A stretch of DNA of 64,000 bases from Bacillota bacterium (GCA_030024085.1 JASEJE010000005.1:8735-72734); one strand, 5' to 3'. Numbered from the stretch's first letter, positions 6,987 through 39,210 are shown. The notes: a model not told the origin generated them from the letters alone. Program-made: numbers and translations.

Positions 6987-7796
6987 TCACCGCACCCCCG
7001 TGAGCGTCAGGCCCGGCACCAGCACCGCCTGGGGCCTCCCGTTCACTGGGTGCGGTCCGACGCACGATCTCACGCCGTATACCTCTTCGATGACCTGGGC
7101 AGTGATCACCTCACCGGGCGTGCCGGACGCCGCAAGATGCCCGTCCCTCAGCATCACTATTCTATCGCAATACTGCGCCGCAAGATTCACGTCATGTAGC
7201 ACGGCCACCACACCCAAGCCCTCCTGCCGCGAGAGGCCCAGGACGAGGTCCATGATCTCCACCTGATGCCTCGGGTCAAGGTGCGACGTGGGCTCGTCGA
7301 GCAGCAGAATCCGCGGCTCCTGGGCGAGCGCCCGCGCCACCATGACCCGCTGTCTCTCCCCGTAGGACAGCTCTGTGATGGGGCGCATTGCGAGACGCGC
7401 CACCTGCGTCGCCTCCATGGCCCGGACCGCAGCCTCGATGTCGCGCTGGGTCTCTCCGGCGAACCTTCCGAGATGAGGCCAGCGGCCCATGAGCACGATG
7501 TCCCTTACGCTGAACGAGAAAGGCGTGTATCCGTTCTGGGGGACGACCGCAACGCGCCGCGCCACGGCCCTTGCGCCCATCTTCCGCACGTCCTGTCCGT
7601 CGAGGGTCACCCTGCCAGCTGTCGGGCGCAGGGCCCCGGCCATCGCCCGCAAGAGAGTGGTCTTGCCGGACCCGTTCGGGCCGAGGACCCCCACGAGTTC
7701 GCCCCCGGCAACCGAGAGCGAAACTCCGTCCAACGCCGTTATTATACCGTACATGCAACGGATGGAAAACACGTCTAATCTCATACGTTTCACCAC
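6987..7796 (-). CDS. ABC transporter ATP-binding protein of an iron-siderophore/cobalamin-type importer (FecE/BtuD-like)
   Basis: Walker A GPNGSGKTTLL, signature LSYGERQRV, Walker B ILLLDEPTSHLD. Confidence 0.85.
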   Translation of the reverse strand: MVKRMRLDVFSIRCMYGIITALDGVSLSVAGGELVGVLGPNGSGKTTLLRAMAGALRPTAGRVTLDGQDVRKMGARAVARRVAVVPQNGYTPFSFSVRDIVLMGRWPHLGRFAGETQRDIEAAVRAMEATQVARLAMRPITELSYGERQRVMVARALAQEPRILLLDEPTSHLDPRHQVEIMDLVLGLSRQEGLGVVAVLHDVNLAAQYCDRIVMLRDGHLAASGTPGEVITAQVIEEVYGVRSCVGPHPVNGRPQAVLVPGLTLTGVR

Positions 7797-9028: not shown

Positions 9029-9168
9029 GGTTCGCCTCTTCCCGTCCCCATCCCCGCCCTGCCGGACCACAGCGCCGCCTGGCACCTTGCCGGAACAGTC
9101 CTCATCGCGATGCGCCTGGTTGTCGCCTTTCATGGGAGCTGTCACCGATACACCAACCTCTCCCTGCG

Positions 9169-10101
9169 TCACCTGAAGATCTCAGGATGGAACAGCCTGG
9201 CAAGGGCCTCGAGACCATCCACGAGCCTCGGGCCTGGCCGCACCAGGAGGTCCGGGTGTACCTCGTACACCTTCCCGTCCCTGTACGCCGATATCCGCTG
9301 CCACGCCGGGCGCGCCAGGGCCTCCGCCCTGTTGAAGTTCGTGAGGATGATTATCTCTGGATCGCGTTCTATCACGGTCTCCGGGCTGAACTGGGGCCAC
9401 TCCGAAGGCGCGTCGTGGGCGATGTTCTCGCCCCCTGCCGCCGATACCAGTTCGTCGACGAAAGTCCCCGGACCTGCCGTCATGAGCGGCTCGTTCCAGA
9501 TCTCCACGAACACCCTCGGCCTCTCCGATGTCTTGAGCCCACCGAGCTTCCTCGCGACCTGCTCCATCCTGGCCGAAAGCCTTTTCACCATCTCGGACGC
9601 CCGGTCCTCCTTGCCTGTGGCCTTCCCGATGAGGGTTATGGCCCGGAGGACCCCGTCGATGCTCTTCGGGTCCACCGCAAGCACCGTGACGCCGAGTTCG
9701 GAGAGCCTTGCGATCCCCTGGCGCTGAAGGCTTCCGACCGCCACCACGAGGTCGGGGCGCATGGCGACAATCTTCTCGTAGTCGAGCTGAATGGAGCCTA
9801 CCTTCGGTTTGGCCTTCGCTTCTTCGGGGTAATCGCAGGAATCGGTGACGCCGATGACCTTCTCGCCAAGACCCAGGGCGAACAGGATCTCGGTGTTGCT
9901 GGGGGCGATGGAAATGATGCGCTCAGGCGCGCGAGCGAGCACAACCTTTCTCCCGAGGTCGTCTATGACGCTGATCGCGGTCCCGGCTGATGCCCCGGCA
10001 CCGTGCGGGACGTACGACACGCACACGGCAAGAGCAAGCGCAGCGATGAATGCGAGAGCTGTTCGACGGCGCCGCGTTCGCGCTATCGTAAGTGATACCA
10101 T
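9169..10101 (-). CDS. Periplasmic-binding-protein (class III, BtuF/FhuD-like) substrate-binding component with signal peptide
   Basis: Signal peptide begins at MVSLTIARTRRRRTALAFIAALALA. The start ATG at 10099-10101 follows AGGAGG. The region ISIAPSNTEILFALGLGEKVIGVTDSCDYPEEAK is BtuF-like. Confidence 0.75.
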   Translation of the reverse strand: MVSLTIARTRRRRTALAFIAALALAVCVSYVPHGAGASAGTAISVIDDLGRKVVLARAPERIISIAPSNTEILFALGLGEKVIGVTDSCDYPEEAKAKPKVGSIQLDYEKIVAMRPDLVVAVGSLQRQGIARLSELGVTVLAVDPKSIDGVLRAITLIGKATGKEDRASEMVKRLSARMEQVARKLGGLKTSERPRVFVEIWNEPLMTAGPGTFVDELVSAAGGENIAHDAPSEWPQFSPETVIERDPEIIILTNFNRAEALARPAWQRISAYRDGKVYEVHPDLLVRPGPRLVDGLEALARLFHPEIFR

Positions 10102-10405
10102 GATACTTGCGAGCCTCCTTCCGTTGAACCGAACCGTCTGGTTGGCGCAGGAGAGTATCCCAGGATTCGACGGAGACCAGCCCGGGTCAGGTCGGGTGGG
10201 GTCGGGTCGCGGCATCCTCCTGAAGGCCACGGATTGCCGGCCGGGCCTGTACACTTACGTGTGGCTTCGACACGTCTGGCGCTCCGCTCCATGGACGCAG
10301 CGAGAAACGCGCGCCGGTGCCGGGGCGGAATGATCGCGCCCGCGACCCACCTGCTCTCCAGGTTGCAGCCGGAACCCTGCCACACGCCGCACGTCAGAAC
10401 GGCAA

Positions 10406-10428: not shown

Positions 10429-10487
10429 TGTTGCTCGCGATAAAACAACCTGCCACTCCCCTTCACCGAAGGCGCAAGGTCACGCTG

Positions 10488-10740
10488 ACAGGCAGGTCTC
10501 CTGGCTTCCGGATCGTCGCATCCGCCCTGGGCCTTCCCCCGGCGCGCATCCCTCCGAGGTGCGGGTGACTCGCCGCACCGCCGGGCCTGGACACGCGGAC
10601 CGGAGTGACCGTGCAGGGCTGCTCCCCGGGTACAGTGGCGGGAACCGCGGGCTTGCAGGGCTTGGGATCGCCCTGCCGCCTCTTCCCTATTCTCCCCCGA
10701 TGGGGCACCTGCCAGCTTCAAATCTGGTATCCATTCTGGC
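10488..10740 (-). ncRNA. Cobalamin (B12) riboswitch
   Basis: Read on the minus strand it contains AATAGGGAAGA, GCGGTTCCCGCCACTGTA (core GCCACTG) and a near-perfect B12 box AAGCCAGGAGACCTGCC (plus-strand 10491-10507). It lies in the 5' leader of the btuF-btuC-btuD-btuR-like operon. Confidence 0.75.
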
Positions 10741-10864: not shown

Positions 10865-10917
10865 CACCGCAATCCCAACAGCCGTTGAAAGACTGGGAGG
10901 AACCAACGAACCCCCAC
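10865..10917 (+). repeat. Copy 1 of a ~50-nt repeated intergenic motif with palindromic core CCAACAGCCGTTG
   Basis: caccgcaatcccaacagccgttgaaagactgggaggaaccaacgaacccccac matches 28765-28816 at ~45/53 positions in the same orientation. Confidence 0.5.
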
Positions 10918-11094
10918 TTAGCCCGCGGAACGCCGGAAGGGACGGCCGGCGCTCATCTATGGGTCACCTACTTCACAGGGCCGCTCATACTATACTACTG
11001 GCCGCCTTCGACTCGGTTGCCCTGGGCAGTCCGCCTCCGAGTGGACAACTGGGCAGAACTGGGGACCGTGGCTGCCCGGAGGGAGAGTCAGCCT

Positions 11095-12321
11095 GTGCCG
11101 ATCCTGGGGAATGGCAACGAAGCGCCCGTCCCGCTTTCAGAGGCGCCCCTGGGCTCCGCGTGCCGCATCGTATGCCTGGTTGCTGCGGGGTTTTCGAGGA
11201 GGCGGCTTCTCGACGTGGGATTCGTCCCGGGAGCGTGCGTCGCCCCAGTGCGCCGCAGCCCTGCCGGCGATCCCACGGCGTATCGTGTGAAGGGCGCCCT
11301 CATCGCGGTTCGGGCGCAGGAGGCGAAGGAGATAATGGTGCACATCTTGCCGCCGGGGCTGCCCGCCGCCGGACGCGTGGTCTGGAACGATTCTCGCACC
11401 CCGGCCGTCGCCCCTGGCCCCGACTTCGACGCCGGCCTTGACCCCGGGTCCGGTACCGCATCTCTGACGGAGGTGAGTCCTGTGAGGTTCATGCACCACC
11501 CATCATTGCGCGTATCGTGCGGTGTTCGCAAGCCCCGGCCCGGCCGGTCGCAAGGTGCGCCCCCGCCTGTCTGCCGCACCGTCGCATTGGCGGGCAACCC
11601 TAACACGGGAAAGAGCACCGTCTTCAACGCCCTCACGGGGCTCGGCCAGCATACCGGCAACTGGCCGGGTAAGACCGTGGTCGTGGCGGAGGGCTTTTAT
11701 ACCCACCGTGGGACGACCTACCGTGTTGTCGATCTCCCCGGCACATACTCCCTCCTTGCCACGTCACCGGAGGAGGAAGTCGCGAGGGACTTCATATGCT
11801 TCGGCGAGGCCGACGCGACGGCCGTCGTGGCCGATGCAACATGCCTCGAGCGCAACCTCAATCTCGTCCTCCAGATCATGGAGATAAGGCCGCGAGTCGT
11901 GGTTTGCCTCAACCTCATGGACGAGGCGAGGCGCAAGGGGATCTCCGTGGACGCGAAAGGGCTTGCCTCGGAGCTCGGGGTCCCCGTCGTGCCTACCGCG
12001 GCGCGGGCGAGGCAGGGTCTCGCGGCGCTCATGGACGCTATAGCGGATGTGGCAAGCGGGCAGCTTCCCACAAGGCCGCTTGAGGTCACCTACAGCCCGG
12101 AGATCGAGGCGCTGGTGGGCGACATCGAACGGCCCCTTGCGGCGATCATGGGTGAGATCGCCCCAGGGATCTCCCTCCGCTGGCTCGCCCTCCGGCTCAT
12201 AGACGACGACCGCGGCCTTATCGAGGCGATCAACGAGAGGGTGAGCAAGAAACGAGCACAGGACACACGATCCAGGCGCGCGGCGCGTCCTGTGGCTGCG
12301 AGGAGCGGGATCCCGGCGTGA
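11095..12321 (+). CDS. feoB: FeoA domain fused in frame to the FeoB N-terminal GTPase plus GDI/helical domain (ferrous-iron transport)
   Basis: FeoA-like SH3 segment (LGSACRIVCLVAAG...VGFVPGACV...AYRVKGALIAVRAQEAKEIMV) and then the G-domain (ALAGNPNTGKSTVFNALTG, DLPGTYSL). The probable start is the GTG at 11095 after GGAGGGAGAG. The ORF-track start at 10885 reads through the repeat motif and is unlikely. Confidence 0.7.
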   Translation: MPILGNGNEAPVPLSEAPLGSACRIVCLVAAGFSRRRLLDVGFVPGACVAPVRRSPAGDPTAYRVKGALIAVRAQEAKEIMVHILPPGLPAAGRVVWNDSRTPAVAPGPDFDAGLDPGSGTASLTEVSPVRFMHHPSLRVSCGVRKPRPGRSQGAPPPVCRTVALAGNPNTGKSTVFNALTGLGQHTGNWPGKTVVVAEGFYTHRGTTYRVVDLPGTYSLLATSPEEEVARDFICFGEADATAVVADATCLERNLNLVLQIMEIRPRVVVCLNLMDEARRKGISVDAKGLASELGVPVVPTAARARQGLAALMDAIADVASGQLPTRPLEVTYSPEIEALVGDIERPLAAIMGEIAPGISLRWLALRLIDDDRGLIEAINERVSKKRAQDTRSRRAARPVAARSGIPA

Positions 12322-13718
12322 CTCGCGTGGCCAGCCGGCAGTTTCTCGATATCGTAGAGCAAGCCCGGCAGGCAAGATCACAGGTGCCGGGCGACGTCAG
12401 GGACCTCATGGTAACCAGGATATACGAGGTGGCCGGGACCATCTGCCAGAAGACGGTGCGCCGTGCGCCTCAACCAGCGCGCGATTGGGATACGCGCCTG
12501 GACGACGTCCTCACGTCGAGGCTTTTCGGGTACCCGTTCATGCTCGCCCTGCTGGGCGTGGTCTTCTGGATAACCCTGGTGGGCGCGAACGTCCCTTCAA
12601 GGCTACTGGCGGCCGCGCTCTTCTGGGGACAGGACCGGCTCCTGGACCTTTTCTCGTGGGCAAGTGCTCCCGCCTGGCTCACGGGCGTACTCGTCATGGG
12701 AGCGTATAGGGCGCTCGCATGGGTCGTGTCGGTCATGTTGCCGCCGATGGCGATATTCTTCCCGTGTTTCGCCCTGCTCGAGGACCTGGGCTACCTCCCA
12801 AGGGTGGCCTTCAACCTTGACGCCCTTTTCAAGCGCGCGGGCACCCACGGCAAGCAGGCCCTGACCATGTGCATGGGGTTCGGCTGCAACGCTGCGGGGG
12901 TGGTCTCGTGCCGCATAATCGACTCACCGCGCGAACGGCTCATTGCCATCCTCACCAACAACTTCGTGCCGTGCAACGGCCGGTTCCCGACCCTCATAGC
13001 CATGTCCGCCATGTTCTTCGGGGCGGGCCTGCGGGGCGGCACTGGCAGGGGTGGCTCCGCCGTGTCGCTCCTCGGCGCAGTGGTCCTCGGCATCGCCGTC
13101 ACGCTCGGCGTGTCGTGGCTCCTGTCGCGGACGTTGCTCCGCGGGGTTGCGTCCTCTTTCGTGCTCGAGCTCCCGTCGTACAGAAGACCCGAGGCCGTGA
13201 GGGTGATCGCGAGGTCCCTCCTCGACCGCGCCCTCTTCGTGCTTGTGAGGGCTGCGACGGTTGCGGCGCCCGCCGGGGCTGTGACGTGGGTGCTCGGGAA
13301 CGTGATGGCGGGCGGCGCAAGCCTGCTCGCCCGCGTGGCAGGCTTTTTTGATCCATTCGCACGCCTGATCGGGCTCGACGGACACATCCTCACCGCCTTC
13401 GTGCTCGGGCTACCCGCGAACGAGATAGTGATCCCCATCCTCCTGATGGGGTACTCCGGTGCCGGAGCCATGGTGGATGTCGGCGGGCTCGACGCCCTTC
13501 GAGCGGTGCTCGTGGCAAACGGGTGGACCCCGCTCACTGCGGCGTGCGTCATCCTGTTCTCCCTGCTCCACTATCCGTGCGCCACGACCCTCTGGACCAT
13601 CTGGCACGAGACCCGAAGCGCCAGGTGGACCGCGGTAGCGGCGCTCCTGCCGCTCGCCGTGGCCTGTGCAGTGTGCTTCACCGCGGCTTCCGCCGCAAGG
13701 CTCCTCGGACTGACGTGA
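12318..13718 (+). CDS. feoB: FeoB C-terminal part (linker plus polytopic gate/membrane domain)
   Basis: The N-terminus aligns to the FeoB linker (DLMVTRIYEVAGTICQKTV...DTRLDDVLTSRLFGYPFMLALLG resembles E. coli ...ARYQCIAAICDVV...DKIVLNRFLGLPIFL). It is followed by multiple TM helices. The GTG start overlaps the upstream TGA (GTGA). Confidence 0.7.
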   Translation: MTRVASRQFLDIVEQARQARSQVPGDVRDLMVTRIYEVAGTICQKTVRRAPQPARDWDTRLDDVLTSRLFGYPFMLALLGVVFWITLVGANVPSRLLAAALFWGQDRLLDLFSWASAPAWLTGVLVMGAYRALAWVVSVMLPPMAIFFPCFALLEDLGYLPRVAFNLDALFKRAGTHGKQALTMCMGFGCNAAGVVSCRIIDSPRERLIAILTNNFVPCNGRFPTLIAMSAMFFGAGLRGGTGRGGSAVSLLGAVVLGIAVTLGVSWLLSRTLLRGVASSFVLELPSYRRPEAVRVIARSLLDRALFVLVRAATVAAPAGAVTWVLGNVMAGGASLLARVAGFFDPFARLIGLDGHILTAFVLGLPANEIVIPILLMGYSGAGAMVDVGGLDALRAVLVANGWTPLTAACVILFSLLHYPCATTLWTIWHETRSARWTAVAALLPLAVACAVCFTAASAARLLGLT

Positions 13719-13750
13719 GGGCCGTCGGCCGCACGCAACCAGACACGCGT

Positions 13751-14947
13751 CTACACTCTCGCCAGGGCCTGGTCGAGGTCGGCGATGACGTCCTCCGGGT
13801 CCTCGAGGCCCACCGAGACCCGCACCAGCGCCTCGCTGAACCCGAACTCGGCGAGCCGCTCCCTCGGATACTCGCGGTGCGTCATGGACGCCGGATGCTC
13901 CACGAGGGTCTCCGCATCTCCCAGGCTCACCGCGATGGTGCACAGTCGCAGGGCGTCCATGAAGCGGACCGCGGCGTTATAGCCGCCCTTCACCTCGAAG
14001 GACACGATGCCTCCGCACCCACGCATCTGGCGCGTGACAAGCTCGCGTTGGGGGAAGTCATCGAGCCCCGGATACAGCACGCGCTCCACGTTCGGGTGGC
14101 CCGCCAGGAACCTCGCCACCGCCAGCGCGTTGCTGGCATGACGCTCCATTCGAATGCCGAGGGTCTTGAGACCCCGCAGGAAAAGCCACGCGTTGAAGGG
14201 CGCCAGCACCCCGCCGAGGTCACACAGGAAGTCGAAGCGCAGCCGGAAAACGTAGTCAGGGTCGCGCGCAACCGCCACCCCGCCCAGAGCGTCGCCGTGG
14301 CCGCCGATGTACTTGGTGCACGAATGCACCACCACGTCCGCCCCGAGAGCAAGCGGGTTCTGGAAATAGGGCGTCGCGAACGTGTTGTCCACGACCACCG
14401 TGGCTCCGCGACGATGGGCTGCCTCCGCGGCGGCGGCGATGTCCACAAGCTCAAGGCTTGGGTTGGCGGGGGTTTCAAGGTACACAACCTTCGTCGCGTC
14501 GGTCAGGCCGGCCTCGAGCGCGCCGGGGCGTGCGAGGTCGGCGAACCTAGCGCTTATGCCATATCGCGGCAGGAAGTGGGTCACCACGTGGTAAGTCGAG
14601 CCGTAGAGCGTGCGCGATGTCACGAGCTCGTCCCCCGCCTCCAGAAGCGACAGCAGTACGGACGAGATCGCTGCCATCCCAGATGAGAAGGCCACGGCCT
14701 TCTCGCCCTTCTCCAGGACGGCCATCTTCTGCTCGAACAGCCGCAGGGTCGGGTTGTTGCCGCGAGTGTACACGTACTCTGCGGACTCCCCCGAGAACAC
14801 CTTCTGGGCATGGGCAACGCTGTCGAACACGAAGGTGGACGTCTGGTAGATCGGGGGGTTCAAAGCGCCGAGGGCATGCTTACCGTCCCATCCGGCGTGG
14901 ATCGCCTGCGTATCGAACCCCAGGTTTCGGCCTGCCTCCTTGCTCAT
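13751..14947 (-). CDS. Cys/Met-metabolism PLP-dependent enzyme (cystathionine gamma-lyase / methionine gamma-lyase / O-acetylhomoserine sulfhydrylase family)
   Basis: MSKEAGRNLGFDTQAIHAG...NPPIYQTSTFVF and the PLP-lysine region HSCTKYIGGHGDALGG. The start ATG is at 14945-14947. Confidence 0.8.
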   Translation of the reverse strand: MSKEAGRNLGFDTQAIHAGWDGKHALGALNPPIYQTSTFVFDSVAHAQKVFSGESAEYVYTRGNNPTLRLFEQKMAVLEKGEKAVAFSSGMAAISSVLLSLLEAGDELVTSRTLYGSTYHVVTHFLPRYGISARFADLARPGALEAGLTDATKVVYLETPANPSLELVDIAAAAEAAHRRGATVVVDNTFATPYFQNPLALGADVVVHSCTKYIGGHGDALGGVAVARDPDYVFRLRFDFLCDLGGVLAPFNAWLFLRGLKTLGIRMERHASNALAVARFLAGHPNVERVLYPGLDDFPQRELVTRQMRGCGGIVSFEVKGGYNAAVRFMDALRLCTIAVSLGDAETLVEHPASMTHREYPRERLAEFGFSEALVRVSVGLEDPEDVIADLDQALARV

Positions 14948-15252
14948 CCCGTGTTCACCATCCCATCTATGTACGGGTTCATGAACCCGCTGGCTTTCTC
15001 CACTTCGCGGCAACGCTGCAGGGTGAAGGTCAGGCGAGGCGCCCCGCCCTAGCAAGCGCCGGCAACCCTAACACCCCCAAGAAAAGTGGCGAAAACTTAT
15101 GGCGCCATACTTAGGCAAAACCAACGGTTTCGTTCAGAGAGTCCCACGAGCTCTCCAGCAGGTTCGGGGCAGCGATCTCAAGACTCACACCCATGCACGG
15201 TGCGGAGGCTGGGTCTTCCAGACGCTGCCTCCGGCCTCGCTCGGGCGTGAAG

Positions 15253-16224
15253 CTACGACACACCGCCACCGAAATCCAGCAGGACCTTGAGGCTTCCCCG
15301 CCTTCCCGCCTCTTCGAACGCCTCTATCGCACAGGCCGCCGGGAAGACGCCATCGATGAGGCTCGCGGTATCGATCCTCCGTTCTTCCAGGAGCCGCATG
15401 GCAGGTGGAAACGGTCCGCACCTGGAGCCGACGCACGTCGCCTCATTGACCACCACCGGCGAGAGGTTCGTAGGGGCCTCGCCGTGAAACGTGCTCTTGA
15501 GGACGATCGTGCCGCGCGGGCGCACAAGAGCCACCGCCTCCGCCAGCCCCGACGGGCTTCCAGTGCACTCCACCACCACGTCAGCCCTCCGCGACAAGGC
15601 CGGGGACCCGGAGAGCGCTGTCTCGATGCCGGCCTTTCGCGCGATGTCCAGTTTCTCCTCGTGTCGTCCGACGAGGATCACGTGGTGCCCCGAGGCGTGG
15701 ACAGCCTGGGCCACGAGAAGGCCGAGCTTTCCGTCGCCGAGCACCACGACACTATCCGACGGGCGAATGTGGACCTGCTCCAGCACTTCCACTGCCGCCG
15801 CGAGAGGCTCGGTGAAGACGGCCTCGCGGTCGCTCACCGACCCCGGGACGGGATGGAGGTTTTCGCACGGCAACACCGTGTAATCAGCGAAGCACCCGGG
15901 CCACGCGCGCATTCCCATGGTGCGGATGCGCTGGCAGTGCCGGGGGTAGCCCATGCGGCACATGGGGCACTCCCCGCAGGGTATGTTTATCTCGCCGACC
16001 ACTCTGTTACCCACAAGGGCCGGCTCATCCGCATCCTCCACCGTCCCGACGAACTCATGGCCCAGGATGCCGGTATACCCGAGGTATCCTCGGGTGATCT
16101 CAAGGTCGGTGTTGCATATGCCCGCGAGCCGCACCCGCACAAGGGCCTCGCCTTTGCCTCTTCCAGGGACGGGAAAGCCGTCTTGCACCAGGAGGCGCTC
16201 ACCGTCGAAGACAACCGCGCGCAC
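15253..16224 (-). CDS. Zn-dependent alcohol dehydrogenase (medium-chain dehydrogenase/reductase family)
   Basis: GHEFVGTV catalytic-zinc motif, a Cys-rich structural-zinc loop (CGECPMCRMGYPRHC) and a Rossmann GDGKLG. Confidence 0.75.
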   Translation of the reverse strand: MRAVVFDGERLLVQDGFPVPGRGKGEALVRVRLAGICNTDLEITRGYLGYTGILGHEFVGTVEDADEPALVGNRVVGEINIPCGECPMCRMGYPRHCQRIRTMGMRAWPGCFADYTVLPCENLHPVPGSVSDREAVFTEPLAAAVEVLEQVHIRPSDSVVVLGDGKLGLLVAQAVHASGHHVILVGRHEEKLDIARKAGIETALSGSPALSRRADVVVECTGSPSGLAEAVALVRPRGTIVLKSTFHGEAPTNLSPVVVNEATCVGSRCGPFPPAMRLLEERRIDTASLIDGVFPAACAIEAFEEAGRRGSLKVLLDFGGGVS

Positions 16225-16252
16225 AAAACCTCACCCTCTCGATCCTTCCGGC

Positions 16253-16996
16253 TCACCCTTCCTCGCCCGCAAGCCGTGCCACGGCGTCAAGGGCGATCTC
16301 GGCCTCGAGCTCGATGGCTTTCGCCACCACCTCGCGGTTGGGATTGTAGGCGTCGCCCTCGAACTCGACAGCCACGCCGTCCACGGCGAGGATCGCACCT
16401 GCGCACACCCCACGCAGCGCCGCCACTATGAGGAGCGCCGAGACCTCCATCTCGACCCCTATGGCTCCCGCGCGGCTCATCTCGGCGTTCGGGAGCGGCA
16501 GGATGCCCGGGTAAAATGCCCCCACCGAAAGCACCACGCCTCTCGAGATCCTCGCGCCGCGCGCAAGACCCACCCCGTAAAGGGCATCTGCGACCCTGCT
16601 GTCGGCAATAGCGGGAAAGGACAGGGGGACAAGCTGGTCCGTCACCCCGTCCTCTCGCACGGCACCCGTGGCCACGATGAGGTCCCCGTCCACGATGGAG
16701 CGGCTCAGCGACCCGGCTGTTCCGACCCTGATGAGGACCCTGGCGCCAGCCTTGATGAGATCCTCGAAACATACGCATGCCCCGGCCGCCCCAACGCCGT
16801 GGGATGCGATCGTCACGGGCGTGCCCCGATACACACCGTTTACAACGCGGTACTCGCGGTTGTACGCAACCTCGCGGGCATCCTCAAGGTGCTTCGCGAT
16901 GACGCGAGTCCTTCCAGGATCACCACAGACGATTGCGTACTGCGAGACCTGGCCCGGGTAGACCTTCAATATCGGTAACATTCTCTCGTTGGCCAT
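16253..16996 (-). CDS. Purine/uridine nucleoside phosphorylase, PNP/UDP family 1 (DeoD-type)
   Basis: GDPGRTRVIAKHLEDAREV (compare DeoD [20 protein letters not shown]) and RVGTAGSL. The start is at MANERMLPIL. Confidence 0.8.
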   Translation of the reverse strand: MANERMLPILKVYPGQVSQYAIVCGDPGRTRVIAKHLEDAREVAYNREYRVVNGVYRGTPVTIASHGVGAAGACVCFEDLIKAGARVLIRVGTAGSLSRSIVDGDLIVATGAVREDGVTDQLVPLSFPAIADSRVADALYGVGLARGARISRGVVLSVGAFYPGILPLPNAEMSRAGAIGVEMEVSALLIVAALRGVCAGAILAVDGVAVEFEGDAYNPNREVVAKAIELEAEIALDAVARLAGEEG

Positions 16997-17183
16997 CTTC
17001 ACCCCCCCAACACACATGTCTTGCACATACATTCTCCGGAGGGCACCCGATATCGCGGGTCAGCCGCATATTCCACGGGTGACCGGCCCGATTTCCCGCG
17101 GGAACCTGCCTGGGGCGGCCCGGCCGGCTCCATCCCGGCTCCGGTCATCGAACCGCCCCAGGCCATGCCGGCTTGTGGCCGGC

Positions 17184-17954
17184 CTACAGAAGACAGCCCA
17201 CTACAAGAGCGATGATAAACGGAACAAGCCCGATCTGAACACCAACGCCGTAGGAGCCTACCCCGAACCCCGCAAGCTTTGCGCCATAGGCCCCCGTAGA
17301 TATCAGAAGGCCTACGACAAGGCCGCCGAAGGCGCCCGCCCACGTGAGGGTCTGCCCCACTGCAGGGCGCCTCACGGGCGAGATGTCGTCCTCATCCATG
17401 ACCTCGGTCCACAGGAGGTCCCACTTCTTGATACGGGGATAGAGAAGCAGGATGAGAGGCGGCCCGAGGATGATGGGCACCGCGGCGTTGTTCAGGAAGA
17501 TGATGCTGCCGAGCACCGCGAACGGGAGCATCCGCAGCACCTCAAGCCCCCAGGCTATGATGGTCGCACACGCCGCGCTGGAAACGATGAGCGCAAGAGC
17601 ATAGTGAAGGAAGTCCTTGCCCGACTTTATGGTCGCCTCTTTCCTCAGCGCCTGCCACACTTTATACAACACGATCCCCTGGAACAGATTGCCGAAGAAG
17701 CCGAAGAAGCTCCCTGGTCCGAGAGTCCCGAAGAAGTCGCCGATAAGGTTCCCGAATGCGAGACCCCACGCGCCGGCGGGCCCGAAGAACAGCGGGAACG
17801 TAGCAGCGATGATCTGCGCCGGGCGGAACTCGGTGATACCAGGGATGATGGGAATGCCTTTGAACGGTATGAGGATGGCCGCGTAAACCGCAGCAGTCAG
17901 GGCCGTGAGCATCACCATCTTCGTGTTCTTCCACATGGTGAACATCTCTCTCAT
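17184..17954 (-). CDS. Polytopic membrane protein, candidate ECF-transporter substrate-capture (S) component
   Basis: 256 aa with about 6 predicted TM helices and Gly/Phe-rich loops (FGPAGAWGLAFGNLIGDFFGTLGPGSFFGFFGN). It is encoded in the same operon as the EcfT and EcfA-A' genes. The family assignment is an inference. Confidence 0.45.
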   Translation of the reverse strand: MREMFTMWKNTKMVMLTALTAAVYAAILIPFKGIPIIPGITEFRPAQIIAATFPLFFGPAGAWGLAFGNLIGDFFGTLGPGSFFGFFGNLFQGIVLYKVWQALRKEATIKSGKDFLHYALALIVSSAACATIIAWGLEVLRMLPFAVLGSIIFLNNAAVPIILGPPLILLLYPRIKKWDLLWTEVMDEDDISPVRRPAVGQTLTWAGAFGGLVVGLLISTGAYGAKLAGFGVGSYGVGVQIGLVPFIIALVVGCLL

Positions 17955-18108
17955 GGTAACAACTCCTCTCCTTTTACGGTTGTTGCATGATCATTTCTGT
18001 CACGTGTCGCATTTCGCTTTCACTCATCGATCCCTCATGCCAGTCGTCTCATGCGACCTAGGTCGCGCCTGTGATACCACCTGCGACATTGCCTACAAGC
18101 CAGACCAA

Positions 18109-19152
18109 TCATTTGCTGTGCTCGACCTCGGCCATCTCCTTCAGGCTCTCCCGGTACGGAGGGCGAGCCACGCCTCTCTCGGTGATGATTGCCGTAACAT
18201 ATCGTGCAGGAGTAACGTCAAACGCCGGGTTGAAGACCGCCACGTGCTGGGGAGCCACCCGATGCCCGAGGATCTCCACCACCTCCCTCGGATCCCTTTC
18301 CTCGATGGGGATATCCCGACCGGTCGCGCAGGCAAGGTCCAGCGTTGAGACGGGGGCCGCGACGTAGAACGGGATCCCGTTCTCCTTCGCAAGCACCGCC
18401 ACGCTGTACGTGCCTATCTTGTTCGCGACATCCCCGTTCGCTGCGATCCTGTCGGCCCCCACGATGACGCAGTCGACCTTGCCAAGGCTCATGACGTAGC
18501 CAGCCACGTTATCCGTGATGAGCGTTACAGGGATACCGTCCTCCACAAGCTCGAACGCGGTGAGCCTCGCGCCCTGGAGATATGGCCGGGTTTCATCGGC
18601 GAAAACGTGGACACGCTTTCCCTGCTCCACCGCGGCGCGCACGATACCCAGCGCTGTGCCGTACCCGGCCGTAGCGAGGGCGCCGGCGTTGCAGTGAGTA
18701 AGCACGGTCACCGGGTCCCCCAGGAGGCTCGCCCCGTTCCTGCCTATCTGCCGGTTGGCCTCCACGTCTTCCTCCTCCGTCTCCCGGGCAGCCGCCTCCA
18801 TAACCTCGGGAATCCTGCACCAATCTGGGCACCCAAGGGCAACGTCCAGCATCTTTCCCACGGCCCACGCGAGGTTCACAGCTGTGGGCCTCGCGGCTGT
18901 GAGATCCCGTGCCGCCTCTCTCAAGCGTTCGATGTACACGGCACGCTCGCCCGCATGGAACTCACGAGACGCGAGGACCATGCCATATGCGGCGCTTATC
19001 CCGATGGCCGGCGCTCCCCGCACCTTCATCGTGCGGATTGCATCGCCTACGTCCCGGTAACTCCTGCAGGTGACATACTCCTTTTCGAGCGGAAGCCGGG
19101 TCTGGTCGAGAAGCTCGAGAGCGCTCCCGTCCCAGACGAGTGCTTTCAGCAT
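18109..19152 (-). CDS. mtnA: S-methyl-5-thioribose-1-phosphate isomerase family (MtnA / eIF-2B-like)
   Basis: [27 protein letters not shown]...[19 protein letters not shown]. The start ATG is at 19150-19152; the ORF-track extension to 19356 is probably untranslated. Confidence 0.8.
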
Positions 19153-19247
19153 GTCGTATTTCCCCCTCTTGCGGTCCGATCTCGCGCTCTGCCGACTCTG
19201 AACCTGCGCCGCAGCAGCAGCACATGAACACCGAGCGCGCGGGCCGC

Positions 19248-20057
19248 TCACTTCATGAGGCCGCGGATAAGCGTCCGCCCGGTCAGCGTGAGATACGTGT
19301 TTGCGACCACCAGGGCGAGGAACAGCCCCACCACAACGGTTTCCCGGGCGGTCCATTTGAATCTCAGGTAAAACGTGCGTTTCGTGGACGCACCGAACCC
19401 CTTCCCCTCGAGCGCCATGGCAAGGCCGTCGCTGCTCCTGATGGCGGTGAGGAATATGGGCACGAGAAGTGGAATGTACTTCCGTACACGCTCGATGAAG
19501 GACCCCGAGTCGATGTCAAGGCCCCTGGATCTCTGCGCCTGGGCGATGGTGGCGCCGGCTCCCACGAATGTCGGCACGAGGCGAAGCGCCGTCGAGAACG
19601 CGAACGCCATCGGATATGGTAGGCCCAGCAATATGAGCCCTTGCGAGATCTCCTCATTCTTGGTGGTAGACAGGAATACCATTCCTGCGATGATCATGGC
19701 GTCCAGCTTCAGGCCTGTGCCGATGCCGTACAGGATGGATTGCCTCGAGACCCGCCAGATGAGGACGTCTGTCCCCTTCGCGAAAAAGGTCCAGACCAGG
19801 GTCGAGAATATGAAGATGAAGAACAGGATCTGCCGTATCCGCCTGAGGTTCTCGAGAGATCTCGCCGCTGCGCCGTATGCCAGGATGACGGCGAAAGCCC
19901 CTGCAACCCAGAGCGGGTGCTGGTTGAGCAGAGGCAGCGCAAATGAGAAGAGAAGCACGAACAGCTTGGCCCTGGGATCCATCCGGTGGATCGGAGTATC
20001 TTTGTCAAGGTACAGGTACAGGTTCACTTCCTTGCCCCCTCTTCCCGTCCCACGCAT
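19248..20057 (-). CDS. ECF transporter transmembrane (T) component (EcfT/CbiQ family)
   Basis: 269-aa polytopic protein with the CbiQ/EcfT-type conserved cytoplasmic loop region ([16 protein letters not shown]). It is adjacent to the duplicated ATPase. Confidence 0.8.
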
Positions 20058-21748
20058 GCCACGAGCTCATCCACGGTGAGAACCGGAAGCCCGAGCCTGG
20101 CGCCGAAGCGCACGATCTGCGGCGGCTTGAGGAACACGTCGGCAAGCTCTTTCTCGCGGACGAACACGTCCCTCACGGGTCCGTCCATCACCACCTGCCC
20201 CTCCTTGAGCACTACGGCACGGTGGGCGTATGCTGCCGTCACCCACATGCTGTGGGTGACAATAATGATCGTGTGGCCCATCTCGTTCAGCCTTTTTATG
20301 AGGTCCATCATGCTTTCTTGCTCTTTGTAGTCGAGGCCCGTAGTCGGCTCGTCGAGGATGATGACTTCAGGCTTCGCTGCAAGCACCGATGCCACGGCCA
20401 CGCGCTGGCGTTGCCCCTTCGTGAGCGAGAACGGATCTTCCTCTTCGCTCCCGGTAAGCCCCACGGCCTCGAGGGCATCGACAACCCGCGCCTTCACCTC
20501 CCCCTCCGGCACGCCGAACAGCCTTGGCCCGTACGCGACCTCGTCAAACACGGTCTGCGCGAAGATCTGGTGGTCCGGGTTCTGGAACACGTAGCCCACC
20601 GTCTTGCTCAGCTCGAACATGCTGGTGGCCCGCGTGTCCCTGGCGTTCACCACGACCTCGCCGCCGGTGGGTGCAAGCAGGCCATTGAAATGCTTGACAA
20701 GCGTCGTCTTGCCGCTGCCGTTCTGGCCGAGCACCGCGACGAACTCTCCTCGCCGGATGGTGAGGTCCACGCCCCTCAAGGCCTCAAGCCCGTTTTCGTA
20801 GCGGTGAACGAGGTTCCTGACCTCAATCACGGGGTCGCCGTAGCCCGCCTGCTGCTGCCGGGTCTTCTCCGACACCAGGGAGTCCAGCCTTCTCCTGTCG
20901 GCGGCGAGGCCCAGCCTCTCCCAGGCAGAGAGGCCCTCCTCCACGGTGAGCGGAAGCTCGCCCCCATCGAGGGATGCCCCTGGCCCGAGGGATGCGAAGA
21001 ACTCCGCAACCTCGAGGGGCTTGACGGAACACTCTTCGAGCAGCGCGGGACTCGCCAGGATGGCCCGCGCGTTCCCCTCTGCCACGATCCGGCCGTCACG
21101 CATGAGGACGATCCTGTCGGCTTTGAGAGCCTCCTCGGTCTCATGCTCCACTATGAGCATGGTCATGTTCTTCTCCCGGCTGAGCTCGTCGGCTACCTGG
21201 AATACGTCGAACTTGCCGATGGGGTCCAGGTCAGTGGTAGGCTCGTCCATGCATATGATCCGTGGCTGGATCGACAGCGCCGAGGCAATGGCGAGCCGCT
21301 GCTTCTGGCCACCGGAGAGCGTGGCGGGCTGTCTCGCCTCGAAGCCATCCAGGCGTACCCTCTTGAGGGTGGCGTGGATGCGCCGCCCTATCTCGTCGGG
21401 GTCAACGCCGAAGTTCTCGGGACCAAAGGCCACCTCGAGCTCGACGTTAGTGGAAAAGATCTGCGTCTCGAAGTCCTGGAAGACAAGGACGATGTCCCTC
21501 GCGAGATCGCTGACCTTGTGCTTCTTGGTAGGTACGCCGAACACTCTGACCTCGCCCGAGTATTTTCCTTTCTTGAAGTTCGGGATGAGCCCGTTCAAGG
21601 TGAGGCAGAACGTAGATTTCCCGGCGCCACTCGGGCCCATCAGAACGACGAACTCCCCGGGGCTTATTGCGAGGTCTACCCCGGAGATGGCCTCGCGCTC
21701 GCTGCCCTTGTACGCAAAGGACAGGCCCTGGACCTCGACAGCGTTCAT
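20024..21748 (-). CDS. ECF transporter ATPase, fused tandem EcfA-EcfA' (two ABC domains)
   Basis: Two Walker A motifs (GPSGAGKST; GQNGSGKTT), two LSGGQ-type signatures (LSGGQKQR; LTKGQRQR) and two Walker B (ICMDEPTTDLD; IILDEPTTGLD). Confidence 0.85.
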   Translation of the reverse strand: MNAVEVQGLSFAYKGSEREAISGVDLAISPGEFVVLMGPSGAGKSTFCLTLNGLIPNFKKGKYSGEVRVFGVPTKKHKVSDLARDIVLVFQDFETQIFSTNVELEVAFGPENFGVDPDEIGRRIHATLKRVRLDGFEARQPATLSGGQKQRLAIASALSIQPRIICMDEPTTDLDPIGKFDVFQVADELSREKNMTMLIVEHETEEALKADRIVLMRDGRIVAEGNARAILASPALLEECSVKPLEVAEFFASLGPGASLDGGELPLTVEEGLSAWERLGLAADRRRLDSLVSEKTRQQQAGYGDPVIEVRNLVHRYENGLEALRGVDLTIRRGEFVAVLGQNGSGKTTLVKHFNGLLAPTGGEVVVNARDTRATSMFELSKTVGYVFQNPDHQIFAQTVFDEVAYGPRLFGVPEGEVKARVVDALEAVGLTGSEEEDPFSLTKGQRQRVAVASVLAAKPEVIILDEPTTGLDYKEQESMMDLIKRLNEMGHTIIIVTHSMWVTAAYAHRAVVLKEGQVVMDGPVRDVFVREKELADVFLKPPQIVRFGARLGLPVLTVDELVACVGREEGARK

Positions 21749-22512
21749 GAGGTTCGAATGCCCCCTTCTGTTCTCATGGCTCTCCTGATGACTGAAAAGT
21801 GGAAGAAATCCGGATGGAAGTAGTCTTCGCCGAACGCCACAGCATCGCCGTCCTCACTATAGTGGACCTGCTCAAGAAGCAGTAGTGGTTGTCCCTCGGT
21901 AAGCCCCAGCTTTCGCGAAAGCGCCCTATCGGCACCGACAGGTCGGATGTCAGCCCTAACCAGCTCCACCTGGATACGCTGGGCGGCAAGCATCCTGAAG
22001 AGCGAACCCGCATACCTTGTGAGAAACTCCTCCGGCGAAAGCAGGCGGGGCACCAGCCTGGCTGGCACTCTGTCCCTTCCGTAGACGACGGGCTGCCCGT
22101 CCGCGGTCCTTATCCGGTCAAAGGTAACTATATCGAGGTCGTCACCAAGCCCAAGCCGCTCCGCAAGCCGCGCGTCCGCGCGCTCCGACCTCACTACAAG
22201 GGAGGTGGTCCCAGGCTGCATGCCCAGTTGCCTGATGAGATCTGTGATGCTCGAAAGCTCCTCGATGCCGCTCTGTATCATCCCGGCGCGGCGTCTCACG
22301 AACGACCCTACGCCATGCTTTCGAGCGATGATGCCCTGGTTCTCGAGCACCCTGAGGGCTTCCCGGACCGTCGAGCGGCTTACGCCGAGCCTAGTGGCCA
22401 GTTCCTGCTCAGACGGCAGCCGGTCACCCGGCTGATGCGCAGCTTCGATCATGGCGACGATTTCATCCTTCACCTGCAGGAAGATGGGTCTTGCCACCAC
22501 CGGCACGGGCAA
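21745..22512 (-). CDS. GntR-family transcriptional regulator (HutC-subfamily-like, HTH plus UTRA effector domain)
   Basis: N-terminal HTH (RLPSEQELATRLGVSRSTVREALRVL). It is the first gene of the operon with the ECF/mtnA genes. TTG or GTG start near 22506-22512. Confidence 0.8.
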   Translation of the reverse strand: MPVPVVARPIFLQVKDEIVAMIEAAHQPGDRLPSEQELATRLGVSRSTVREALRVLENQGIIARKHGVGSFVRRRAGMIQSGIEELSSITDLIRQLGMQPGTTSLVVRSERADARLAERLGLGDDLDIVTFDRIRTADGQPVVYGRDRVPARLVPRLLSPEEFLTRYAGSLFRMLAAQRIQVELVRADIRPVGADRALSRKLGLTEGQPLLLLEQVHYSEDGDAVAFGEDYFHPDFFHFSVIRRAMRTEGGIRTS

Positions 22513-22718
22513 TCCTCCTCTGAAGGCGGGCTCTGCACCATAGGCGCCACTTCGTTACCTCCGAGGCCTTTCGCATGCTCGCCGTTGGAAAGCCTACCGG
22601 GCCTGCCGGGCCTTAAGACCCGCGACCCCGCCACAACCCCAGCCCGTCCGGCCGCGGGCCCTGATGCTGCTATGCCTCTTGTAAGCTCGCGCCACGTGTC
22701 TGGTCCCGTGATGCCTGG

Positions 22719-22735
22719 CGACCAGACGTTGGTCG
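22719..22735. promoter_or_regulatory. Inverted repeat CGACCA-N5-TGGTCG, candidate GntR/HutC-type operator in the leader of the GntR gene
   Basis: Perfect 6-bp arms. The GACCA...TGGTC architecture resembles HutC/NagR-type operators. It lies ~210 nt upstream of the regulator start. Confidence 0.3.
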
Positions 22736-23107
22736 TCCGGCAACTCTGCCTGCACTCCTCTTCGATGCAGCCGGTCACTTTCCTGCTGAATCATAGCACA
22801 TATTTACGATGTATTCGCCTGTTACTATCTGGCACTGACTCCTGACGCTGGCCTCTCCCGAGCTACAACCCGGCCCTGAGGCCTGCGTGCTTTTCGCTTC
22901 ACTTTGGCCTGCCGGCGGCAGGCGGGGACATCCGGGCGTTCCTGCCGCACGCGAGAGGCCCCCGTACGATATCTCAGGCTTCAGCCTCGGCTGTTCCCAC
23001 GATACCGACCATCGCACTGGCGTCTTGAGGTGCCCCGCTCTGACTCAAAGAGACATCCCGGACGAATCCCGGCCTCCTAACTTCCCATCCGCTCCTGCCG
23101 CCGGAGG

Positions 23108-23659
23108 TCACCCGATTCTGTACCTGCGCACGCCCTCTTCGTAAAGGTCGTTCCCGTACATGTCGTTGACCACAACAGCCGGGAAGCCTTCCACGGTGAG
23201 CTTCCTGATAGCCTCGGGGCCGAGGTCTTCGTATGCCACAATCTCCGATGCCTTCACGCACTTGGCGAGAAGCGCGCCAGCACCGCCGATGGCGGCGAAG
23301 TACACTGCCTTGAACCTGACCATGGCGTCCCTGACGGCCTGAGAGCGGCTCCCCTTGCCGATCATACCTTTGAGCCCATCCTCCATGAGAAGCGGGGCGT
23401 ACGAGTCCATTCTGTAGCTTGTGGTCGGCCCCGCTGATCCGATCGGCTTTCCGGGGCGCGCCGGTGCCGGGCCGACGTAGTATATGATCTGCCCCCGGAT
23501 GTCCATGGGAAGCTCTTTCCCCTCGGCAAGCAAGGCCACCAGCCTCTTATGTGCGGCATCCCGCGCAGTGTACAGGACTCCCGATATCCTCACGTTGTCG
23601 CCAGCCTTCAGCCTGGCAACGACTTCATCAGTGAGCGGAGTAGATATTTCGATGGCCAC
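23108..23659 (-). CDS. Fe-S hydro-lyase beta subunit (class I fumarate hydratase / L(+)-tartrate dehydratase beta type)
   Basis: The C-terminal domain family pattern (...GPEAIRKLTVEGFPAVVVNDMYGNDLYEEG) matches the FumB-C/TtdB family. The GTG start at 23657-23659 follows GAAGGAGG. Confidence 0.7.
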   Translation of the reverse strand: MAIEISTPLTDEVVARLKAGDNVRISGVLYTARDAAHKRLVALLAEGKELPMDIRGQIIYYVGPAPARPGKPIGSAGPTTSYRMDSYAPLLMEDGLKGMIGKGSRSQAVRDAMVRFKAVYFAAIGGAGALLAKCVKASEIVAYEDLGPEAIRKLTVEGFPAVVVNDMYGNDLYEEGVRRYRIG

Positions 23660-34911: not shown

Positions 34912-34917
34912 CCTCTG

Positions 34918-39174: not shown

Positions 39175-39210
39175 CGAGCGGCGCCAGCGCATAAGGGAGG
39201 CATCGTCAGC

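Follow-up and report, generated by a model that had tools for sequence, protein, structure and literature searches.

Every cell that uses S-adenosylmethionine (SAM) produces 5'-methylthioadenosine (MTA), 5'-deoxyadenosine and S-adenosylhomocysteine (SAH). A predicted family of energy-coupling factor (ECF) importers for MTA, MtaT, is said to have come out of the comparative genomics of Rodionov et al. in 2009. The family was listed in a 2013 survey (MtaTUV, TCDB 3.A.1.33); it consists of a dedicated ECF module plus a component that captures the substrate (the S component), and its substrate was predicted from co-location with MTA-salvage genes. In the searchable literature we found no experimental test of such a transporter, no other paper linking ECF transporters with methylthioadenosine, and no characterized ECF-type importer for MTA, 5'-deoxyadenosine or SAH. 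Here we describe an operon from a Bacillota bacterium in which genes for an ECF transporter are joined with those for the isomerase MtnA and a nucleoside phosphorylase (NP). It lies in a window of 64,000 nt (GCA_030024085.1 JASEJE010000005.1:8735-72734), and all positions are counted from the first letter of that window.

The closest described pathway is the dihydroxyacetone phosphate (DHAP) shunt, which is itself already well described. Its enzymes, MtnP (or MtnN plus MtnK), MtnA and the aldolase Ald2, or drdK/I/A in Bacillus, yield DHAP and 2-(methylthio)acetaldehyde from MTA, and DHAP and acetaldehyde from 5'-deoxyadenosine (PMC6079011, PMC13474568). Bacteria that possess the shunt can grow on both nucleosides (PMC6079011, PMC12632272, PMC13474568), and it allows Escherichia coli to grow on exogenous nucleosides (PMC12632272). 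After the shunt, sulfur salvage is known to end with the conversion of methanethiol to methionine (PMC13474568).

The present locus is a variant of this predicted transporter and this described pathway. We propose that it specifies a dedicated (group I) ECF importer along with enzymes for the first steps in the processing of the cargo, and, on balance, we favor the view that the system imports and processes MTA-type by-products of SAM. The most likely cargo is MTA; its deaminated form, 5'-deoxyadenosine and SAH are also possible. As in MtaTUV, an S component and a dedicated A/T module lie beside MTA-utilization genes. The locus differs from MtaTUV in using a phosphorylase of the NP-I type in place of MtnP, and in adding an alcohol dehydrogenase (ADH) and an enzyme resembling methionine gamma-lyase (MGL). 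Its likeness to the DHAP shunt lies in its relatives, which carry a phosphorylase, an MtnA-type isomerase as well as an aldolase of class II; the window, in contrast, has no aldolase, a phosphorylase of a different clade, and the extra ADH and MGL-like enzyme. An ECF importer is present here, whereas only sugar-type transporters were noted for the published DHAP-shunt clusters (PMC6079011).

Organization of the operon

Eight co-oriented genes make up the cluster on the minus strand, and each has a strong family match (Table 1). An earlier interpretation of the window, made before any database search (the sequence-only reading), had named six of these open reading frames, from GntR to the phosphorylase, and had reported a Zn-dependent ADH gene and a Cys/Met enzyme gene downstream; all of them exist.

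Table 1. Genes of the operon and candidate elements of its 5' region, with positions in the window
Feature	Position	Strand	Match or remark
HutC-type GntR regulator (winged-helix GntR + UTRA effector domain)	21745-22512	-	Pfam GntR 2.6e-19, UTRA 2.6e-27; heads the operon
Fused EcfA-EcfA' ATPase (EcfAA')	20024-21748	-	Two ABC_tran domains; TIGR04520 474.5 bits (cut-off 315), TIGR04521 468.5 bits (cut-off 330)
EcfT, CbiQ family	19248-20027	-	Pfam CbiQ 9.3e-29
MtnA	18109-19152	-	TIGR00512 451.9 bits (cut-off 279); NF004326 482.6 bits
256-aa membrane protein (S)	17184-17954	-	Pfam QueT PF06177, 65.6 bits, residues 15-172
NP-I phosphorylase (NP)	16253-16996	-	Pfam PNP_UDP_1
Zn-dependent medium-chain alcohol dehydrogenase (Zn-ADH)	15253-16224	-	Pfam ADH_N, ADH_zinc_N
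MGL-like Cys/Met-family pyridoxal phosphate (PLP) enzyme	13751-14947	-	Pfam Cys_Met_Meta_PP 4.6e-145
Candidate operator, perfect palindrome GACCA-N5-TGGTC	22720-22734		Operon 5' region
Possible extended -10 element TGcTATGAT	22798-22790	-	Upstream of the palindrome; read from the sequence, not reported by the consensus scan

Is this arrangement a meaningful one? A near-identical strain (locus L086) has the same gene order as the window and likewise has no aldolase gene in the spacer between the ADH and MGL-like genes. The closest relative of the same order that does have the aldolase, locus L082, reads EcfAA'-EcfT-MtnA-S-NP-ADH-class II aldolase-MGL, without GntR; its proteins are approximately 65-75% identical to those of the window (S, 72%). 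Because the gene order recurs in L086 and, minus GntR and plus the aldolase, in L082, the arrangement is not a chance juxtaposition.

The gene starts were picked from homology and ribosome-binding sites. GntR likely starts at GTG 22506, with AGGAGG upstream. For EcfT, the short GTG start comes with a ribosome-binding site and agrees with homologues of 259 aa, the listed start at 20057 being too long; ATG 19152 of MtnA also has a ribosome-binding site, and the listed start of that frame at 19356 is spurious. The start of NP at 17032 is probably too long, as is, without that reservation, the listed start of the MGL-like gene at 15055. With these starts, the GntR/EcfAA' and EcfAA'/EcfT junctions are 4-nt overlaps, and the remaining gaps measure 95 nt (EcfT/MtnA), 154 nt (MtnA/S), 187 nt (S/NP), 28 nt (NP/ADH) and 305 nt (ADH/MGL). 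The sequence-only reading had put all overlaps or gaps under 160 nt, which is right for the junctions from GntR to S and wrong for S/NP. A consensus scan, which has little power, showed the intergenic spacers of the cluster to be free of terminator-like sites; its total of promoter and terminator sites did not exceed that in shuffled sequence, and its sole minus-strand site inside the cluster (19393-19375) falls in the EcfT coding sequence. A search for insertion scars around the S gene returned only chance-level repeats.

The ECF module and its S component

Both ABC domains of the fused ATPase exceed the cut-offs of the ECF ATPase models TIGR04520 and TIGR04521, EcfT matches the CbiQ family, and the S, T and A genes stand together in one operon. 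The 256-aa membrane protein had been proposed as the S component of this module, and that assignment is borne out; it had also been said to resemble no classical vitamin S component, which is incorrect. The protein's match to Pfam QueT lies well above the gathering score of 33.7 and covers the six-helix core. An AlphaFold2 model of the protein, built on 22 homologues, reached a pLDDT of 90.8 and comprises six S-type helices followed by two extra C-terminal helices that are conserved in the family. The low-rmsd matches of this model in Foldseek were exclusively ECF S components (RibU, FolT, ThiT, NikM, PanT and BioY), with probabilities of 0.8-0.99 (0.60 for PanT), target-normalized TM-scores of approximately 0.4-0.6 and weak E-values of 0.08-0.9. 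The A21xxxA25 motif in helix 1 is conserved. On the modeled fold, we assign the membrane protein to the ECF S components of the QueT superfamily, in a subfamily of approximately 260 aa, and it is the predicted substrate-capture subunit for MTA-type nucleosides.

This subfamily is large and well conserved: its members are approximately 262 aa long and form at least 1677 clusters at 90% identity. Public records name them "QueT transporter family protein" (NCBI, UniRef) or "ECF S component", and never MtaT. The present S family is likely to be MtaT; TCDB gives 6 and 7 transmembrane segments for the membrane proteins of MtaT, and the model here has the six S-type helices plus two. The importer idea of the sequence-only reading is supported, but it is not new, as an MTA ECF family has been listed since at least 2013.

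Does the QueT name indicate the substrate? The S protein differs from QueT in being approximately 90 aa longer (the QueT profile has 141 positions), in its two extra helices, in having its own ECF module, and in its context, which holds MTA/SAH genes and neither a preQ1 riboswitch nor queuosine genes. A search of 86 loci, out to 10 kb from S, and of the window turned up no homologue of tgt or queA. Because tgt/queA and preQ1 riboswitches are absent from these searches and the gene context is one of SAM-derived nucleosides, the queuosine function implied by the name is not supported. Membership in a queuosine S-component family had been named beforehand as a finding that would refute the proposal; the QueT match is indeed present, but the members examined have no preQ1 riboswitch, tgt or queA nearby and do have an MTA/SAH context.

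Gene neighborhood of the S family

We examined 83 loci with an S homologue (80 genome loci and 3 metagenomic ones). Neighbors were analyzed in two ways, by unbiased clustering of open reading frames and by tblastn with a query panel, and representatives were named with NCBIfam. By tblastn, a homologue lay within 8 kb of S as follows: EcfAA' in 74 of the 83 loci, EcfT in 65, a trimeric phosphorylase of the MTA/5'-methylthioinosine (MTI) type (MtnP) in 34, an MtnA type in 29, an MGL-like enzyme in 19, an amidohydrolase of the MTA/SAH/5'-deoxyadenosine deaminase type in 18, a class II (fuculose-phosphate-type) aldolase in 17, adenosylhomocysteinase (AhcY) in 13 and GntR in 12. The window's own types of Zn-ADH and phosphorylase were found in 3 and 2 loci, respectively. 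AhcY stands directly beside S in 13 loci, including that of Moorella, whose S protein (73% identity) is the closest named relative.

In a neighbor-joining tree of the S proteins, the association with MTA/SAH genes appears in separate clades and with differing gene orders: Moorella plus the window, Chloroflexi, Rubrobacter (AhcY only), and Clostridia plus Spirochaetes. The sequence-only reading had suggested comparative genomics of the cluster, and the recurrence of this association among the 83 loci in separate clades agrees with its proposal. The context of the S family is one of SAM-derived 5'-thio- and 5'-deoxy-nucleosides.

Several loci showed further neighbors; those called putative were assigned by eye. 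Four deltaproteobacterial loci (L025, L033, L051 and L075) have a putative spermidine synthase gene upstream of S on the opposite strand, accompanied in some by an NYN-like gene, with no MtnP or MtnA nearby. Spermidine synthase is an MTA-producing enzyme. A putative HIT-family (histidine triad) gene lies beside S on the opposite strand in L005, L006, L009, L015 and L018, which belong to NC10/Methylomirabilota and, in one case, to Baltobacteraceae, and which otherwise hold just S-EcfAA'-EcfT. In the spirochaete loci L026, L044 and L046, MtnA is present as two paralogues, one phosphorylase is MTAP-like and a second is PNP-like, and, in addition to GntR, a putative DeoR-family regulator gene lies beside the aldolase. 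The E. coli repressor of the DHAP shunt, MtnR, is a DeoR-family protein (PMC12632272).

MtnA and the phosphorylase

From its profile matches, MtnA is predicted to be a 5-methylthioribose-1-phosphate (or 5-deoxyribose-1-phosphate) isomerase. The phosphorylase had been called DeoD-like; this does not hold, as NP falls below the cut-offs of all curated models that we compared (DeoD, 80-97 bits vs. at least 230; Udp, 146 bits vs. 280). Its nearest solved relatives are the hexameric purine nucleoside phosphorylases (PNPs) of Plasmodium, at approximately 150 bits and with 38% identity to the 3FOW chain. NP is 67-71% identical to its positional counterparts in L082 and L083, and a protein of an uncultured Bacillota metagenome-assembled genome matches it at 100% identity.

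Plasmodium PNPs cleave MTI besides inosine (PMC3885546). We aligned NP with the P. falciparum PNP (PfPNP) chain of 3FOW, which is a triple mutant (wild-type residues per PMC3885546), and also with DeoD and Udp of E. coli from the MG1655 record. The phosphate ligands R27, R45 and R88 of PfPNP are kept in NP, as are the ribose and substrate ligands M183 and E184, the general acid D206, and V66 and V73 of the 5'-methylthio pocket; the insertion by which Udp recognizes uracil is absent. NP differs from PfPNP in two places: the 5'-OH ligand His7 (equivalent to DeoD His4 and Udp His8) is Ile, and Tyr160 is Phe. In PfPNP, the changes His7Phe and His7Ser move the preference towards MTI, and with Tyr160Phe it is approximately tenfold lower (PMC3885546). 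Read from the alignment, the residue evidence on a 5'-methylthio preference appears mixed. The replacement of His by Ile was also considered as a marker of MTA-linked phosphorylases and was rejected: the change is general in the bacterial clade and occurs also in members that adjoin ordinary nucleoside transporters.

A different kind of evidence comes from gene pairing. In three loci syntenic with the window (L091, L092 and L093), MtnA is directly followed by the same type of phosphorylase, with a 4-nt overlap in L092 as called there. This pairing ties the phosphorylase functionally to MtnA. Because the residues are mixed and the His replacement is clade-wide, the pairing, rather than the residues, is the best argument for a role on 5'-thio- or 5'-deoxy-nucleosides. 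NP is a candidate MTA/MTI/5'-deoxyadenosine phosphorylase of the NP-I hexameric type, in a Plasmodium-PNP-like clade.

The missing aldolase

The sequence-only reading found no MtnK, MtnB, MtnC, MtnD, RuBisCO-like protein or aldolase, and this is true of the window as a whole, according to tblastn and to Pfam scans of 30 further genes, most of those remaining. These scans revealed no other MTA-salvage enzyme. By tblastn, the window has no homologue of the class II aldolase, MtnP, the deaminase or AhcY anywhere. MtnB, MtnC, MtnD, MtnW/X and the transaminase that follows MtnA were found neither in the cluster nor among 38 Pfam-annotated genes, which are most of the window. Pfam scans of most window genes also returned no MtnN or MtnK, for which no probe-based search was made. 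Although the aldolase is missing from the window, as had been said, it belongs to the homologous cluster elsewhere: it lies between ADH and MGL in L082, and a class II aldolase is present in 16 other related loci.

We considered whether the 305-nt spacer between the ADH and MGL-like genes might hold an aldolase pseudogene, and rejected this, as tblastn with the L082 aldolase revealed no remnant there (E>0.05). Nor is there conservation of this spacer across the window, L086 and L092. What the window carries is a variant of the DHAP-shunt cluster without the aldolase, and one of two things must be true of its genome: either the aldolase is encoded elsewhere, or 5-methylthioribulose-1-phosphate has another fate.

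In L091, the same spacer is approximately 950 nt long and contains, at 11004-11411, a 14-bp palindrome (GTGAYGTRCRTCAC-like) that occurs seven times at intervals of approximately 60 nt, an array not reported by Tandem Repeats Finder. The window shares approximately 80 nt at the MGL-proximal end of the L091 spacer, and the array is absent from it.

The Zn-ADH and the MGL-like enzyme

Homologues of the Zn-ADH are found in the clusters of L082 (approximately 65% identity), L086, L091 and L092, and, at 46-47% identity, in the Caldanaerobacter-type loci L031 and L063, both of which also have the aldolase. According to a 2026 review, the DHAP-shunt enzyme that reduces 2-(methylthio)acetaldehyde is still unidentified (PMC13474568). 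The Zn-ADH is a reasonable candidate for a reductase of 2-(methylthio)acetaldehyde or acetaldehyde.

The best solved relatives of the MGL-like protein are true MGLs: it matches that of Citrobacter freundii (PDB 2RFV), of the Cys/Met PLP fold family, over its full length at approximately 460 bits. It differs from these enzymes in two respects. Its scores on the NCBIfam MGL models, 515-520 bits, lie below the equivalog cut-offs (TIGR01328, 514.9 vs. 549.7), and the active-site Cys (C. freundii Cys115, "YGC") is replaced by Ser ("YGS"), as in most of its S-linked homologues (14 of 18, that of L082 included). One option for its role is the assimilation of methanethiol into methionine; the other is that it acts by gamma-elimination on methionine, homocysteine or an S-substituted homocysteine.

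Syntenic relatives and a mosaic of identities

The loci L091, L092 and L093 share the flanks of the window, with fumarase upstream and FeoB downstream. L091 and L092 read MtnA-NP-ADH-MGL, and L093 has MtnA-NP only; GntR, the ECF genes, S and the aldolase are absent from all three. MtnA plus NP is the conserved core in the window's lineage. Since these relatives keep MtnA-NP(-ADH-MGL) without GntR, the ECF genes and S, the transporter is modular: GntR, the ECF genes and S were gained or lost as a module, with S inserted between MtnA and NP.

The identities themselves form a mosaic. From GntR to NP, the window's proteins are 98-100% identical to those of L086, and its ADH and MGL-like proteins are just 87-88% identical to their L086 counterparts. 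The latter two are 93-98% identical to those of L091, whose MtnA and NP are 82-86% identical to the window's. Because the pattern is mosaic between L086 and L091, it suggests a recombination breakpoint near the NP/ADH junction. At L086 14266-14859, between the MGL-like gene and feoB, lies a gene for a Uma2-family endonuclease that is absent from the window, where the gap is 32 nt.

Regulation

The GntR protein is probably the regulator of the cluster, because its gene overlaps ecfAA' by 4 nt and its homologues (32-38% identity) head equivalent clusters in 12 of the 83 loci, of Clostridia and Spirochaetes. UTRA domains of HutC-family regulators are the basis for guessing at a phosphorylated effector; by this analogy, the effector would plausibly be a phosphorylated intermediate of the pathway, plausibly a phosphorylated sugar.

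The sequence-only reading had placed a candidate operator at 22719-22735. The palindrome at this site is perfect and is the single exact match to GACCA-N5-TGGTC in the window; with one mismatch allowed, five matches occur vs. 2.5 expected, which is not significant. We take its half-sites to resemble HutC-family operators. In footprinting, it recurred only in the near-identical strain L086, and the operator remains a guess. Should the possible extended -10 element be real, the GntR start would be preceded by a GC-rich leader of approximately 270 nt (22513-22790, minus strand); this leader has no Rfam match.

Control of the operon by a SAM, SAH or preQ1 riboswitch was ruled out by Rfam searches. 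A permissive search of 13700-23200 (E<=1) was empty, and at the gathering score the only match in the whole window was a cobalamin riboswitch outside the operon. None of the three riboswitches was found in the operon or in 8 related loci, in which Rfam matched only a T-box and a thiamine pyrophosphate (TPP) element, both outside the clusters. In L031, a T-box leader (12445-12742, 115 bits) lies directly 3' of the cluster's MGL-like gene.

Other features of the window

The G+C content of the window is 59-68%. Its remaining genes are of a housekeeping kind and include those for FeoAB, a BtuFCD-like system, TldD/PmbA, class I fumarase, 2-hydroxyacyl-CoA dehydratase, LeuA/CD/B-like proteins, CopA, SpoIID, CysK/CysE and Opp. 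The cobalamin riboswitch (10474-10727, minus strand, 62 bits) lies upstream of an uptake operon of the BtuF/FecCD/ABC-ATPase type (9169-10254, 7907-9172 and 6987-7796), and feoAB (10885-13718) adjoins this operon. The 2-hydroxyacyl-CoA dehydratase genes (34105-37493, minus strand) encode two HGD-D subunits and a BcrAD/BadFG-type activator; on the opposite strand, 38026-42132 holds genes resembling those of homocitrate/isopropylmalate synthase, aconitase and isopropylmalate dehydrogenase.

Discussion

The gene identities and the conserved neighborhood were observed directly, and the fold of the S component was taken from a model; for the substrate, every catalytic step and the regulation, we infer the following scheme. 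The QueT-like S component would bind the nucleoside outside the cell and topple against EcfT, driven by ATP hydrolysis at EcfAA'. The Plasmodium-PNP-like phosphorylase would release the purine base and 5-methylthioribose-1-phosphate, which MtnA would isomerize to 5-methylthioribulose-1-phosphate. In relatives, the in-cluster class II aldolase would cleave this product to DHAP and 2-(methylthio)acetaldehyde, as in the DHAP shunt; in the window's genome, the aldolase would be encoded outside the cluster, or the pathway would stop or differ. The Zn-ADH could reduce the aldehyde to 2-(methylthio)ethanol. At the sulfur amino acid end, the MGL-like enzyme with its Cys-to-Ser change may convert methanethiol to methionine, or may act on methionine or homocysteine by gamma-elimination. 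The HutC-type GntR protein would probably repress the operon until a pathway intermediate, plausibly the phosphorylated sugar, binds its UTRA domain.

Much of this scheme had been anticipated. The sequence-only reading had proposed an ECF importer working with the phosphorylase and MtnA on a 5'-thionucleoside, which is backed by the neighborhoods of the 83 loci, by L082 and by L091-L093. It had also hinted at a fate resembling the DHAP shunt that involves the downstream ADH and Cys/Met enzyme, and relatives with the aldolase, such as L082, lend support to this idea.

Several observations weigh against the proposal that the system handles MTA-type by-products of SAM. The ADH has no obvious substrate from the window's genes, because the aldolase, MtnP, the deaminase and AhcY are all missing. 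In the phosphorylase, the position of the PfPNP residue most important for MTI use, Tyr160, is taken by Phe; a hydrophobic residue stands at the His7 position in 103 of its 120 closest bacterial homologues; and two homologues adjoin ordinary Bmp-type nucleoside ABC transporters, without MtnA. Approximately 35 of the 83 loci, mainly of NC10/Methylomirabilota and Deltaproteobacteria, consist only of S-EcfAA'-EcfT and have no MTA gene nearby, and the AhcY-only loci suggest SAH as a possible alternative cargo of some family members. The S protein is formally a Pfam QueT protein, and public records name it a QueT transporter. Finally, the searchable literature shows no transport or enzyme assay for any member.

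Which other readings do these observations allow? One holds SAH to be the main cargo, imported for recovery of the sulfur and carbon of homocysteine, with the MGL-like enzyme as a gamma-lyase of homocysteine or S-substituted homocysteine. The position of AhcY directly beside S, in Moorella among others, favors it, as do the MTA/SAH deaminase family to which the associated amidohydrolases belong and the MGL-like genes within 8 kb of S, for which the classical DHAP shunt has no step. However, neither AhcY nor a deaminase is present in the window, and the trio of MtnP, MtnA and aldolase is the hallmark of a pathway that processes MTA and 5'-deoxyadenosine. Nor are MTAP-type phosphorylases known to take SAH. 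SAH as the main cargo seems unlikely to us; this reading overlaps with the one that we prefer, as the family may take both nucleosides. If SAH were imported as well as MTA, a homocysteine branch of the DHAP shunt could be envisaged: phosphorolysis (after deamination in relatives), the isomerase and the aldolase would give DHAP and S-(2-oxoethyl)homocysteine, which the Zn-ADH would reduce and from which the YGS enzyme would remove the thiol by gamma-elimination, leaving 2-oxobutyrate and ammonia. Such a branch would explain why the cluster is accompanied by an ADH and a gamma-lyase-like enzyme, why spirochaete loci have two MtnA and two phosphorylase paralogues, and why AhcY takes the place of the cluster genes in other lineages; we nonetheless regard it as quite improbable. 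Distinctly unlikely, in our view, is a role in general purine-nucleoside catabolism, in which inosine or adenosine would be processed via ribose-1-phosphate and ribulose-1-phosphate to DHAP and glycolaldehyde, the latter reduced by the ADH. PfPNP-type enzymes use inosine well (PMC3885546), the phosphorylase clade includes the members beside Bmp-type transporters, and the L031 aldolase scores 203 bits, short of the cut-off of 300, on a haloarchaeal model for ribulose-1-phosphate aldolase. On the other side, the recurrent neighbors (MTA/MTI phosphorylase, amidohydrolase, AhcY and the MGL-like enzyme) are specific to sulfur-containing by-products of SAM, a putative spermidine synthase gene lies beside S in four loci, MtnA scores above the equivalog cut-off for 5-methylthioribose-1-phosphate isomerases, and NP has lost the His that serves as 5'-OH ligand. 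The cluster also has no phosphopentomutase or ribokinase, though a mutase of the PGM/PMM family lies approximately 8 kb off (4813-6249).

Two further readings would sever the transporter from the enzymes. In the first, the S protein is a true QueT that imports preQ0, preQ1 or queuine, and its neighbors are functionally unrelated. The Pfam score and the NCBI and UniRef name speak for this, but the length of 256 aa and the two extra helices do not fit the QueT profile, the Rfam searches (operon and 8 related loci) and the tgt/queA searches (window and 86 loci) returned nothing that would belong to queuosine metabolism, a dedicated ECF module accompanies S in 74 of the 83 loci, and the S gene is embedded between those of MtnA and the phosphorylase. 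We consider a true QueT very improbable. It would surprise us as much if the operon were a mosaic without a common function, in which a GntR-ECF-S micronutrient cassette was inserted by accident into an MtnA-phosphorylase operon. Although L091-L093 have the MtnA-NP(-ADH-MGL) core without the cassette, and the two parts of the operon have different nearest relatives (L086 from GntR to NP, L091 for ADH and MGL), one accidental insertion is insufficient to account for S homologues among MTA genes in several distant phyla and in differing orders, and S sits between MtnA and NP, not at the operon's edge.

We return to the import and processing of MTA-type by-products of SAM as our preferred reading. 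What is specific to this locus is the use of a Plasmodium-PNP-like phosphorylase for MtnP, the ADH and the YGS enzyme within the cluster, the lack of an aldolase, the presence or absence of GntR-ECF-S as a module at a conserved chromosomal site, and the misleading QueT family name. If the reading is correct, the QueT label would mislead for at least 1677 clusters of proteins (at 90% identity), in hosts that include anaerobic Firmicutes, Chloroflexi, Actinobacteria, Spirochaetes, NC10 and Deltaproteobacteria. The Zn-ADH would be a candidate for the aldehyde reductase of the DHAP shunt, and the locus would point to a subfamily of MGL-like enzymes and to the substitution of a non-orthologous, Plasmodium-PNP-like enzyme for MtnP. 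For the communities in which these organisms live, it would provide a molecular handle on the cross-feeding of SAM waste products under anoxic conditions.

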